A program made the position numbers. 12,688 nt of DNA from a virus (lineage: Duplodnaviria > Heunggongvirae > Uroviricota > Caudoviricetes): IMG/VR virus record IMGVR_UViG_2675903324_000010. One strand, written 5' to 3'. Positions 9,001 to 12,000 of the stretch are shown piece by piece (within the stretch, counting starts at the first letter, position 1; the number at the start of each line of letters is the position of its first letter).

Positions 9001-12000
9001 GAAACTTGAGGAGCGCGGTTTATGGCGACGTGCGGCGACCCGATGGTCTGACGTCCTTCTTCACGCAGAAACGGACAGGGAGCGCGAGGAAGCTGCCAGA
9101 CGTCGGGGGATATGTATCATTAAATCCCGTCGTATGCCTGAGCAGTTCGTCACCTTTGGCGATGTGAAAAAGGCCGCAGACAGAAGGCTGAAAGAGATGG
9201 GGATTAATCCGCAGGATGAATGGAAAATTACAGCTTCAGTGATGCAGGCGACGATTTAGCGCTACCGTGATACGTATCTCATCACCGTATTTGCTCAGTT
9301 ATCGCGATTCGCTATAATCACCACCGAAGAGCCGTTGATGGTGTTCGCCTCTGGCAACTGGAGCCAGACTGCATGAAGCCAGTCAGCGGCTTTTCAGCAC
9401 TCATTTTGATGTGTACTTGTCACACACATCGGGATGAGTGAATGACGAAAACATCACGGTGATTTCGTCATGCCGCGATAAGAATGTTCCCCTTTGGGCA
9501 ATTGAAGCCCTCTGTGCAGAAGGTTATCGCGGTCAGGTTGTGATAAAAACGCGCCTCTTTGAGCAATTGAAGCTCACTGTAAAGCGGCTTATCACAGCAG
9601 GCTGTAACGGGCGCTCATCTTCTGGCAACTGAAGCCACCTGTACAGAGACCCGTTACGGCTGACCCTGAATGATTTCGCCCCGTGCAATTGAAGCACCCA
9701 GCGGAGTTATTCAGGGTTTTTTATTGCCCCTCCACCAGCACCACATCTGTAGCATTGATGCGTATACATTCGCCGTCAATTGCACCATTCCGGCCCTCAC
9801 CGTCACGCACCACAACAGAATGACCAGGCAGGCCATAACGCGCCACCTTTCGACGAACACCATCACCAGCGCCCTCACGACGCTCAAACACATTAATCCG
9901 CTCAAGAAGACCATCACGCACCATAGCTTCCAGCGTGCGCCTTGTTGATTCGATCTGATACCGGCTGTTGAATGAATCCATACCATGCAGCAGGTAAGCC
10001 ACACCGGAGACATCAAACGGCGGGTTGCCAATTTCAACGCTGACCCACGCCAGATTGTCGGGAGTGAAGTAACTGAGGGTCTCTTTTTTGTATTGCGTCA
10101 GTCTCATAATGGCCTTTCTTATTGTAGGATGAGTCCCTCATACAATAAGCCATAAGGCAAATTTTGAAAGGACAGAATCGGCGAGGGCAACAGGTGATAC
10201 GTGATGACAAGGTTGAAGCGCTGGAAGCACAAGGGTTATGCGATGGGTTGCGGCAATATGAGGCAAATATGAATATTCAAATTGTTGTGTTGTGAGGTAC
10301 GCAAGATGAAAAAAATTGATTCTTTACGAATAAGTAAAGTAGCTATTATATCAGTATCTTTATTATTTCTTAGCGCGTGTTCTACAAATAATATTGAGAA
10401 TATGCCGAGAGATGCGCGTGTAAAATTTGCTCTAATGAGGGCTTATTCAGATAACAAGTTTGATAATTCAACAGTTATCGGCGAAGTGTTAGGATTGAGT
10501 TGCGCCAGACAACTTGGAAAAACATTAGTAACACCATTGCCAGGGGGAAGCGCTATTGCTACATCCTCTGAGGGCGACATTACTTCTGAGTCGGATGCAA
10601 TACAGGACATGCGATATAAAGCCGCAATGATGGGAGGTGATGCCATAGTGAACGTTGTATGTAAATCAGGTGGTGTTGACTGGATTCATAACTGTTGGTC
10701 AACTGTTAAGTGCGTTGGTGATGTAATAAAAAAATAACAGTTGCCATACTGAAGGTATTGATTAATACATGGAAACTGCAATTACGACGTGTGATTGCAG
10801 CTTACCGTTAGCTACCCCTGTTACAATTGCCCTCTTCCATCACAGCAAAATGCTACCCCCTTCACAGCCCCCTCGGAAGCCCCTCCGATGGGGTGAAAAA
10901 TCCCTGAAAAACTGCGCAAAAAACTGCGCAAATCGATCATAAAACCGATCACAAAATCGATCACACAGACCAGCAGAGAAAAGCCAGGTATGACGCGGCT
11001 TGCAGGGGGAAAGGCCACCGGAAAAAGTGAGCATTTTTCTCAAAAACGAAACGCAACAGGAAGCGCAAAACGAAACCGATACGCGATGATCGAAAAAGCG
11101 CGCAAATTTACCGGATTCGGGTAAGCAATTTTGCCTGATTTGGGCAAAATACGGTGTCGCCGTAACAGTGACATTGACACCAAAACAGTGACACACAGGA
11201 GGGCCGATGACCGAACGTTCACCAACAGAGATAATTCACGGGATTATTGAAGAGCAGGAGGAACGCGAGTTAATCCTCATGATTGAAGAGCAGAGAGAAC
11301 GCCAGCGCAAACAGGAGGCCACGCAGCCGGACAGCGTGAGCGCTGAAAATCAGGCTGATGTGACGTGATGGTGTCGAACTGAGTAACTTTAAGTAACCTT
11401 GTGACCAGTTTTAAACGAGTCGCAAAAAGAGCCGGAGAAAAACCACGAATCTGGGGTTTTTACTGGCGCGGTGTACACGGTGGAACGCATAGCGTTACCT
11501 GACTTATTGCATTGTAAAAAGTTAGAAAGGCACGGCCTGTAAGATGGGATGTTGTGAGTGGTTTAAAGCTACCCGCAAATTCTTTCGTTGTGCTGGCACA
11601 GGCGGTTAAACCGTCGGTAACTGGATAATCCCCATTGGGGGAAAAGCTGGCTACACCCCTCACATCTGAGGACTGATAACGCAAAATTGCGTTGGCTGGC
11701 AGAGTGCAAATTTGCACGATGGCCTAACCCATTGATTCTTTCGAAAACCCCCATTGGGGGAGAACGGGGGAATAAACCTGACTCATTGATTCTTCCACAA
11801 TCCTCAATTTGAGGAAGTCGGCGCGGTAACTCACTGAGATTAAAGCAAAGCTCAAATCTGAGATGGCTACATCCCTCACATCTGAGGACTGTTAACCAGC
11901 AAGCCGGAATATATTCACAAACTACGAAATTTTCGTAGTTTAACTTTCATCCAGTACATCCCCGAAAACACGGGTATGTACGGAGTTACCGTTACCAATA

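Follow-up and report, generated by a model that had tools for sequence, protein, structure and literature searches.

What does a run of seven successive predicted hairpins do in a small satellite island of Shiga-toxin E. coli, and where did it come from? The window, the whole stretch of 12,688 nt that was analyzed (IMG/VR record IMGVR_UViG_2675903324_000010), contains such a promoter-to-terminator unit at positions 9325-9722 of the + strand. The region is best explained as a non-coding RNA gene of ~395 nt residing on a PICI-type phage satellite. An earlier sequence-only reading had likewise proposed a structured + strand RNA here, and this prediction gains support from a fold z-score of -10, covariation, strand asymmetry and the lack of any Rfam match.

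Anatomy of the hairpin array

The putative sigma70 promoter (9291-9318, +), as read from the sequence, combines a -35-like TTGCTC (9291-9296), a 16-nt spacer and a TATAAT -10 box (9313-9318). The latter is a perfect consensus and is invariant in nine of 10 arrays, but the -35 box agrees with the consensus at just three of six positions, so that the earlier description of the promoter as near-consensus was overstated in this respect. The divergent array L210 has TTGATT-17-TATTAT at the same position. Both the promoter and the terminator escaped a consensus scan, the latter because the scan allows loops of up to 8 nt. As had been noted, the unit indeed ends in a hairpin (9662-9718) followed by a T6 tract (9717-9722). 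The unit has no coding signature: variable sites are spread 14:14:14 over the codon positions and the stop codon is not conserved. On the same grounds of no codon-position bias and no conserved stop, we rejected both the + strand ORF at 9438-9632 and the - strand ORF at 9533-9697 as proteins; the open - strand frames are remnants of a phage reading frame (see below).

The hairpin is repeated five times, as first reported; its core GCAAYTGRAGC occurs at 9354, 9498, 9563, 9625 and 9685, always on the + strand, against 0.04 matches expected from shuffles (none of the 200 shuffles reaches five). The inner stems around the loop AAYTGRA are TGGC/GCCA, GGGC/GCCC, GAGC/GCTC, TGGC/GCCA and GTGC/GCAC. 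The long outer stems formerly ascribed to repeats 2 and 5 are both present, but such stems are found in all five units.

By folding, unit 1 (9326-9395) is a 70-nt hairpin with the inner element TGGC-AACTGGA-GCCA. It is followed by two array-specific hairpins, A (9398-9440), with a 17-bp stem, and B (9442-9471), with the stem ATGACGAAA/TTTCGTCAT; the latter is the 9-bp hairpin of the sequence-only reading, whose arms lie at 9442-9450/9463-9471 and not at 9444-9474. Unit 2 (9472-9533) has the outer stem CCGCGATAA/TTATCGCGG (9473-9481/9524-9532) and the inner element GGGC-AATTGAA-GCCC, unit 3 (9537-9598) the stem GTTGTGATAA/TTATCACAGC and the inner element GAGC-AATTGAA-GCTC, and unit 4 (9600-9661) a 12-bp outer stem GGCTGTAACGGG/CCCGTTACGGCT enclosing TGGC-AACTGAA-GCCA. 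Unit 5 together with its TTTTTT tract (9662-9722), the predicted intrinsic terminator, displays the stem ACCCTGAAT/ATTCAGGGT, with CCCTGAAT/ATTCAGGG at 9664-9671/9709-9716, and the inner element GTGC-AATTGAA-GCAC. All seven hairpins are on the + strand.

Conservation of the folded + strand

The + strand folds with a predicted energy of -178.3 kcal/mol. In all eight distinct arrays it exceeds the - strand in stability by 18-30 kcal/mol and has about double the number of G.U pairs. Paired cells make up 96.4% in the array alignment, and 10 base pairs are changed on both sides; shuffles give 5.0 +/- 1.3 such pairs and slid controls 1-4. Five of these double changes are in helix 13 of unit 5, and in hairpin A (helix 2) one pair is changed on both sides and six on one side. 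In unit 3, an inner pair that is A-T in the window is G-C in L003 and L216, a compensatory change, and the changes in the outer stem of unit 4 preserve G.U pairing. In L003 the inner stem of unit 5 is kept through two G.U pairs, which is possible on the + strand alone. Starting from Watson-Crick pairs, 18 changes lead to G.T and 10 to A.C, a weak asymmetry. Across the units and their phage counterparts, six of nine consensus pairs show compensatory change; this scoring was limited to the inner and middle helices because MAFFT set unit 4 one column out of register.

The 7-nt loops, read from the sequence, present the YUNR motif on the + strand only; YUNR U-turn loops have an established role in antisense RNAs. 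Part of this loop conservation reflects the L-Q-L codons of a source gene, since the hairpins are antisense copies of a phage gene. The earlier reading had missed this origin from hairpin variants of a Stx-phage gene.

None of the Rfam 15 covariance models matched in 9200-9800 except sucC at E = 3.7, and the corresponding phage element is equally without a match in Rfam. The worry that the repeats might belong to a genome-wide REP/BIME family is not borne out by the data: they occur at 122 places in 114 genomes, all in this island type. We therefore reject such a family, as matches are found just in arrays behind PerC and inside a phage LPD5/LPD38 gene, that is, in one island type and at one phage-gene site.

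The units are antisense copies of one Stx-phage gene site

All five units, of ~60-70 nt each, are copies of a single phage-gene site in antisense orientation and correspond to five allele classes of that site. The source is the 8.4-kb gene for a virion ejection/polyvalent protein of ~2800 aa in 933W/phi24B-type Stx phages (ST933Wp72, phi24B gp47), in which the element lies at codons ~1843-1865, at the end of the variable MuF_C cassette of the gene. The protein is present in phi24B virions and is a proposed ejection protein (bioRxiv 10.64898/2026.04.10.717836). All 175 of the 175 matching phage records are Stx-converting phages.

Unit 1, a copy of allele class B, shows 94.2% identity over 69 nt to the IMG/VR phage allele L007, and its equivalents elsewhere share 91-97% identity with L002, L054 or L007; overall, unit 1 agrees at 93-97% with this gene position in other alleles. 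Unit 2, of class A (933W type), is identical to the phage alleles L034/L038 at 61 of 61 positions. With 933W and ~137 further records of Stx phages it shares 98.4% identity, always opposite the gene strand. The remaining units match known phage alleles in their centers only (21-40 nt). Thus, unit 3, which is related to class A' (phi24B type), has 88-95% identity over its central 40 nt to alleles L047/L050; unit 4, related to class C, has 86% identity over its central 37 nt in the window, with its equivalent in array L200 being identical to allele L053 (37/37); and unit 5, related to class E, agrees with the middle of allele L058 at every position (21/21) and shares its ACCCTGA stem type. For hairpins A and B, no phage sequence matched at E <= 10, and neither the window nor 933W or L001 contains a site complementary to them; as a pair, they mark the arrays in 114 E. 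coli genomes.

In several arrays, some units agree with present-day phage alleles at 100% identity, implying either continued exchange or selection for matching. The arrays share 84-99% identity with each other and retain the five alleles in the same order, with compensatory changes between them. The predicted transcription start near 9325 coincides with the exact first base of homology to the phage element, and the U-run found in the phage alleles is absent from the internal units, the T6 tract being on the last unit only. A pattern scan of metagenomes with three cores, which mostly recovered unrelated tandem repeats, yielded at least three true arrays (L210, L211 and L216).

The phage-side element

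The phage alleles maintain the hairpin by compensatory changes even where these alter the encoded amino acids (GLQLP, RLQLP, VLQLH). Hence, the element serves the phage itself. Each allele contains a putative, weak but conserved antisense promoter (TTGCGN-17-TAnnTT), the hairpin and then a U-run, and by this anatomy we infer that it resembles a small cis-antisense RNA gene with its start at the foot of the hairpin. In 933W, the predicted antisense RNA would fall at coordinates ~54,585-54,665. The proposed antisense promoter was recognized by its conservation across the allele classes; with four of six matches in each box, it was not called by the consensus scan. Given this resemblance, the satellite may have captured and over-expressed the phage's own regulator. 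The upkeep of the hairpin is somewhat unexpected under a simple arms race, which should favor escape mutants that destroy it. We also considered a programmed frameshift signal in the phage mRNA, formed by an A-rich run and the hairpin, and rejected it upon reading the sequences, as no in-phase X XXY YYZ heptamer occurs in any allele class.

The satellite island and its link to Stx phages

The genes of the island code for an integrase, AlpA, a DUF927 primase, SSB, a ProQ/FinO protein, PerC and Q. With an integrase, AlpA and a primase, and with no virion or lysis genes, it conforms to a PICI-type satellite, a kind of element that measures ~10-15 kb. It also contains a C4/IsrK-type RNA immunity region, with two C4 copies and one IsrK recognized by Rfam. 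The gene for the Q antiterminator (12017-12415, +; Pfam Phage_antitermQ, E = 1.5e-51) specifies a protein with ~86% amino acid identity to the Q of 933W and other Stx phages and is, judged by sequence similarity, a second, independent link of the island to these phages. Other than Q, we found neither packaging genes nor further phage-like DNA segments in the window.

The FinO/ProQ-domain protein of 155 aa is encoded at 8542-9009 (+) and matches Pfam PF04352 at E = 1e-24 (87 bits, cut-off 27), while scoring below the NCBIfam cut-offs for both ProQ and FinO. The sequence-only reading had placed its gene directly next to the array; it does lie upstream in the same orientation, but a PerC-family gene (8969-9259, +; Pfam PF06069, E = 1e-25) intervenes and is the one directly upstream of the array. 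Read-through from this PerC gene would also transcribe the + strand of the array. On the far side, a convergent ORF of 128 aa (9721-10107, -), hypothetical in RefSeq and with no Pfam, PHROG or NCBIfam match, ends at the unit 5 hairpin, which has no T-run on the strand of this ORF.

An SSB-ProQ/FinO-PerC module precedes every array examined, in an integrase/AlpA/primase island. This synteny is the sole basis of the earlier suggestion of a chaperone with its cognate RNA, and by analogy with FinO the 155-aa protein may be a candidate RNA chaperone for the array. However, ProQ-PerC modules with no array at all occur in islands of E. coli, Salmonella and Citrobacter, so that the link is not obligatory and the FinO/ProQ protein must have other or additional clients. 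These array-less modules likewise led us to reject a general pairing of FinO with an array.

The gene targeted by the array is found in at least 102 of the 114 array-bearing E. coli genomes, compared with 425 of 5426 (7.8%) overall. Array-bearing STEC include O103:H2 12009, O145:H28 RM13514 and O111:H8. Unit 2 shares 88-98% identity with the allele of the phage resident in the same genome, often just 88-92%.

Proposed function and its alternatives

Because the five hairpins are antisense copies of natural variants of a single phage site, a multi-variant antisense RNA directed against the helper phage is probable. The particular form we propose from the sequence, a trans-acting FinP/FinO-like antisense RNA array against the late mRNA of the helper, seems to us as open to doubt as to belief. 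The array RNA would pair in trans with the phage late mRNA, starting with a loop-loop kiss between its 7-nt YUNR loops (AAYUGRA) and the complementary mRNA loops, and the kiss would extend into duplexes of up to 61 bp. The neighboring FinO-domain protein may assist, much as FinO aids the pairing of FinP with traJ. The outcome would be less phage protein, via cleavage of the duplex or a block of translation, and five alleles per transcript could let one satellite act on the varied helper variants in circulation. As a counterpoint, a satellite traveling in helper virions presumably needs the very ejection protein that is proposed to be repressed. With somewhat greater reserve, we suggest that the array might constitute a heritable, Cas-independent "antisense library" with copies of all circulating alleles of one helper gene on a single transcript, allele-specific and updated by exchange with phages, for the control or disabling of the helper ejection protein, and that the Stx phages themselves might possess a hitherto overlooked cis-antisense sRNA within this gene, hijacked by the satellite.

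The same anatomy and complementarity would be shared by a sensor RNA, in which pairing with phage mRNA alters the fate of the ssb-proQ-perC transcript or satellite induction and thereby reports late expression of the helper, or by a decoy that titrates an RNA-binding protein of the phage or the host, for instance ProQ. The SSB-ProQ-PerC operon runs in the same direction and lies directly ahead of the array, which could hence serve as its 3' UTR; satellites require an induction cue specific to their helper, array and phage as a rule reside together, and there would be no paradox of repressing a protein that may be needed. However, the array has a -10 box of its own, which the divergent L210 also retains; we found no complementary site or target within the island, and a C4/IsrK-type immunity region is already in place there. 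Taken together, the two variants of this explanation are unlikely.

More improbable still is a signal acting at the DNA level—a helper pac, recombination or single-strand priming site, the five variants of which widen the use of helpers for packaging, mobilization or replication. PICIs commonly copy the cos or pac sites of their helpers, and a multi-allele design would broaden the helper range; moreover, the window contains no packaging genes or phage-like DNA apart from Q, SSB and primase genes are just upstream, and the G.T wobble asymmetry could also come from single-stranded DNA. Against this, the phage site is ~25 kb from the terminase genes, within a hypervariable cassette of a late gene. 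Pairing is kept while the sequence varies, which is typical of a folded strand and not of a duplex protein-binding site, and the + strand has a markedly greater propensity to fold than the - strand. The homology also begins at the predicted start, with the U-runs gone from internal units and kept on the last. A replication origin with iterons of the PICI kind was rejected separately, as the array and the primase have three genes between them, it is the pairing and not the sequence that is conserved, and the units have identical counterparts in a phage coding region.

A passive stack of terminator-like hairpins, brought in by phage recombination and insulating the convergent perC and 128-aa genes with no role in trans, would suit the location between convergent genes, the resemblance of the phage alleles to intrinsic terminators on the array's strand and the plausible terminator in unit 5, but is very improbable in light of the U-runs lost from internal units, the -10 box directly upstream, the fixed order of five compensated alleles across arrays and the units 100% identical to current phage alleles.

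Relationship to known antisense systems

The antisense array proposed here most closely recalls the FinP/FinO/traJ system of F-like plasmids. A FinO-domain protein is encoded nearby; the RNA is predicted to consist of stem-loops ending in a terminator with a U-tail; and the hairpins of array and target are fully complementary (up to 61/61), with a loop-loop kiss predicted to be possible. FinP alleles are plasmid-specific, whereas FinO is interchangeable, and the array would similarly couple allele-specific RNAs to a generic chaperone. FinP differs in being encoded in cis, opposite the traJ 5' UTR on the same replicon; the array is satellite-encoded, its target is the interior of a phage coding sequence, and five alleles are concatenated.

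A second parallel is the sRNA SviR of the Vibrio cholerae satellite PLE, which lowers translation of a structural protein of phage ICP1 (bioRxiv 10.1101/2022.04.08.487710). Both would be trans-acting satellite RNAs deployed against helper-phage mRNAs, including one for a structural protein. SviR, however, is a single sRNA with short seed pairing, unlike the multi-allele modules of the array with their perfect complementarity of up to 61 nt copied from the target. The two also differ in satellite family, host and phage, and show no sequence or Rfam relation. The C4 RNAs of P1/P7 and the P4 CI immunity RNA (Rfam C4, RF01695) are likewise phage or satellite antisense RNAs that are processed from a longer transcript and pair with complementary sites, but they act on transcripts of their own element; the array does not resemble the C4 model and is complementary to a gene of another element.

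Like CRISPR arrays, the locus comprises tandem phage-derived segments on one predicted precursor, each matching a different phage variant, and its content differs between strains in step with the phage alleles. In contrast to CRISPR, all modules come from one phage site and each is itself a structured RNA. An actual CRISPR array was rejected: the units abut (0-3 nt apart), they have no common repeat, and no cas genes are present among the window ORFs. Type III toxin-antitoxin RNA repeats (ToxI-like) were also rejected, because the next gene is convergent and not a co-oriented toxin.

The phage element for its part is reminiscent of lambda OOP and P22 Sar: it is ~75 nt long, with a predicted antisense promoter, hairpin and U-run, in or at the end of a coding region. 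It differs from them in lying midway in a late gene of 2800 codons. Our literature search found no paper describing the array RNA; the sRNAs Esr41 and Pas are from different loci.

Implications

If the antisense reading is true, the array would represent a new design in conflicts between mobile elements: RNA-only, sequence-specific targeting of a helper by a multi-allele, target-derived antisense array with a FinO-family chaperone alongside. For the many FinO/ProQ proteins encoded by satellites, it would supply a specific RNA as a candidate partner. On the phage side, the comparison exposes a conserved RNA structure that is possibly an sRNA and lies within the largest gene of those Stx phages that matter most in medicine. 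The array and the Q933-like gene together identify Stx phages of the 933W/phi24B type as helper or target of an island that is widespread in STEC, which bears on the production and spread of Stx phages.

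Phage origin and orientation of the array units

The five units of the array (9325-9722, + strand) are phage-derived, lie in antisense orientation and follow a design of one site represented by many alleles. In a blastn search of 5,426 complete E. coli genomes, unit 2 (9472-9532) matches, with 98-100% identity over 61 nt, part of an 8.4-kb prophage gene ('LPD38/LPD5 domain-containing protein'; prophages at wrbA and other places), and unit 1 (9324-9394) matches the same position (nt 5528-5598) in a variant gene with 93% identity. The window + strand is the strand opposite to the phage gene in every case checked, and 175/175 matching records of the phage collection are Stx-converting phages of the 933W/phi24B type. 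The 16 distinct alleles of the site found among 75 IMG/VR loci form five classes (A, A', B, C and E). The best matches are in class B for unit 1 (94% over 69 nt), A for unit 2 (100% over 61 nt), A' for unit 3 (90% over the central 40 nt), C for unit 4 (86% over 37 nt; 37/37 in another array, L200) and E for unit 5 (21/21 central nt, with the same ACCCTGA-type stem). Different current phage alleles are present in other arrays: unit 2 of array L216 matches 933W over 62/62 nt, and unit 1 of array L210 shares 55 exact nt with phage allele L054. The reverse complements of the units are still open and specify gp47-like peptides (e.g., SRNGSLYRWLQLPEDERP and VLQLHG); hence, the units descend from real coding alleles.

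Architecture of the array and selection on its structure

The five direct repeats described in the sequence-only reading are borne out, with the core GCAAYTGRAGC occurring five times within 9354-9695, on the + strand only, against 0.04 expected from shuffles. Its near-consensus promoter stands for the -10 element, a perfect TATAAT (9313-9318), and fails for the -35, where TTGCTC agrees at only 3/6 positions, which is why a consensus scan missed it. At this position, the divergent array L210 has retained TTGATT-17-TATTAT despite different surrounding sequence. The view that the region is non-coding also holds, as variable sites split 14:14:14 across the codon positions, without a conserved stop codon. 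The + strand of 9325-9725 has a predicted RNA fold of -178.3 kcal/mol (z = -10.0), comprising seven independent hairpins in series, almost without linker: unit 1, hairpins A (9398-9440) and B (9442-9471), and units 2-5. U6 directly follows the hairpin of unit 5, the last of the array; as a rival explanation, the array could be a passive terminator stack. Hairpins A and B, two conserved hairpins between units 1 and 2 (9398-9471), matched no phage sequence, and the window, 933W and the Stx-phage gene locus L001 contain no target complementary to them. An Rfam search returned no family for the array RNA or the phage element, and a literature search found no published description of the array RNA.

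Selection acts on the array structure, on the + strand. In a comparison of 10 arrays (8 distinct, 84-99% identical), pairing holds in 96.4% of cells, and 10 pairs have changed at both positions; column shuffles gave 5.0 +/- 1.3 such pairs (1/500) and slid controls 1-4. When units 2-4 are taken with the phage alleles, compensatory changes occur in 6/9 consensus pairs. In unit 3, an inner pair is A-T in the window and G-C in some arrays (the coding-like GLQLP form); the satellite copy, free of coding constraint, retained the stem. The conserved fold favors the + strand, between promoter-like and terminator-like flanks: in every distinct array this strand folds better than the - strand by 18-30 kcal/mol, with about twice the G.U pairs, and the inner stem of unit 5 in array L003 is held by two G.U pairs that become A.C mismatches on the opposite strand. 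A stricter test starting from the reference Watson-Crick pairs gives weaker support, with 18 changes to G.T versus 10 to A.C. A YUNR motif is present in the loop AAYUGRA solely on the + strand. The two variable positions of this loop correspond to third codon positions, both synonymous, of Leu-Gln-Leu in the phage gene; loop conservation is therefore partly a reflection of the source gene. A further rival, that the array is a DNA signal such as pac, has to be weighed against this preference of the fold for one strand.

The target gene and its hairpin

The 933W target, ST933Wp72, contains LPD5, LPD1, MuF_C and LPD38 domains, and its phi24B ortholog gp47 was detected in virions, with a proposed role as an encapsidated ejection protein (bioRxiv 10.64898/2026.04.10.717836). 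The hairpin site makes up the final ~25 codons of a cassette (aa ~1650-1870) that is variable, with 38-55% identity between two alleles, the remainder of the protein being 99% conserved; its position exactly at the downstream cassette boundary may mark a recombination junction. At least four or five highly dissimilar versions of the cassette, which includes MuF_C, exist among the copies of the gene (L001 9208-17589; L002 9212-17599; L004-L059). The phage alleles retain the inner stem through compensatory change even where amino acids change: GGGC/GCCC encodes GLQLP, AGGC/GCCT RLQLP and GTGC/GCAC VLQLH. All allele classes have a long outer stem followed by a T-run on the antisense strand, resembling a terminator, and in 11/15 alleles the antisense strand gives the more stable RNA, strongly so in classes B and E. 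A weak candidate antisense promoter, TTGCGN-17-TA(T/C)NTT, which the consensus scan did not call, is kept in all classes just upstream on that strand. The predicted start is the hairpin foot, exactly where satellite homology begins. Together, the T-run hairpin and the conserved promoter-like motif suggest that a cis-antisense RNA of ~75 nt may be encoded by the phage. The module is absent from distant gp47 homologs.

Distribution and linkage

Arrays, marked by hairpins A and B, occur at 122 places in 114/5,426 genomes, mostly of recognizable STEC serotypes, and are linked to both the target phage and a FinO-domain gene. A chimeric query joining the phage-gene flank to hairpins A and B hit 437 genomes, and the phage gene is present in 425 of these; at most 12 array genomes therefore lack it, and at least 102/114 (89%) carry it versus 7.8% overall, an association inflated by shared STEC ancestry. 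In four genomes, the resident phage allele and the resident unit 2 are 98.4, 88.5, 91.8 and 88.7% identical. SSB-ProQ/FinO-PerC precedes every array examined, even beside ProQ proteins only 67% identical to that of the window and beside the divergent promoter, but further islands of E. coli, Salmonella and Citrobacter have this trio and no array. In E. coli, Salmonella and Citrobacter the trio is a conserved module of islands that differ in replicase type, with DUF927, AAA_25 or D5_N/Pox_D5 (~2500-3800 in each of L324, L326, L328 and L330). Downstream of PerC in the Salmonella island L328, a 580-nt non-coding stretch replaces the array and bears repeated TGCGCA / CTGCGCAGT motifs (3990-4150) that resemble iterons or inverted repeats, possibly a replication origin.

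The island and a possible role for the array

The window is a phage-satellite-type island, with an integrase (1-1254), AlpA (1798-2001), a Rha/Ash region with IsrK and two C4 antisense RNAs (3362-4043), a DUF927 primase (4827-6968), SSB (8076-8525), the FinO/ProQ-domain protein (8542-9009), PerC (8969-9259) and a Q antiterminator (12017-12415). E. coli O43 RM10042 has a 98%-identical copy, flanked by yicC and dinD, that contains no virion genes. Within 3350-3650, Rfam IsrK (3362-3441) and C4 (3490-3577) overlap a same-strand Pfam Phage_ASH match (aa 429-528 of the 580-aa ORF 2066-3808); either this ORF has been drawn too long and runs over RNA genes, or part of what the Ash family models is RNA genes in translation. 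The second copy of C4 is at 3956-4043. A 49-nt stretch (11773-11821) that shares 90% identity with a segment of an anti-repressor gene from EHEC phage vB_EcoS_phi330 is a further short phage-like segment. Convergent to the array is a conserved 128-aa ORF (9721-10107, - strand) with no family match; on its strand the unit 5 hairpin has no U-run after it, so read-through could yield RNA complementary to the array.

We propose that the array RNA would be transcribed and would then pair with the phage late mRNA, starting from a kissing loop and aided by FinO, and that the outcome would be lower gp47 expression or mimicry of a phage antisense regulator. Alternatively, the array may be a sensor or decoy RNA. 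For the proposed pairing, FinP/FinO/traJ is the closest precedent in mechanism and PLE SviR (bioRxiv 10.1101/2022.04.08.487710) the closest case of a satellite sRNA that acts on a structural gene of the helper; in neither is there a tandem array of many alleles copied from the target. Apart from the array homology, the Q gene is the only part of the window common to any phage at the megablast level, its protein sharing ~86% identity with the Q proteins of 933W and other Stx phages. The satellite Q could turn on the helper late operon, which is the operon carrying stx and has the array-target gene at its end.
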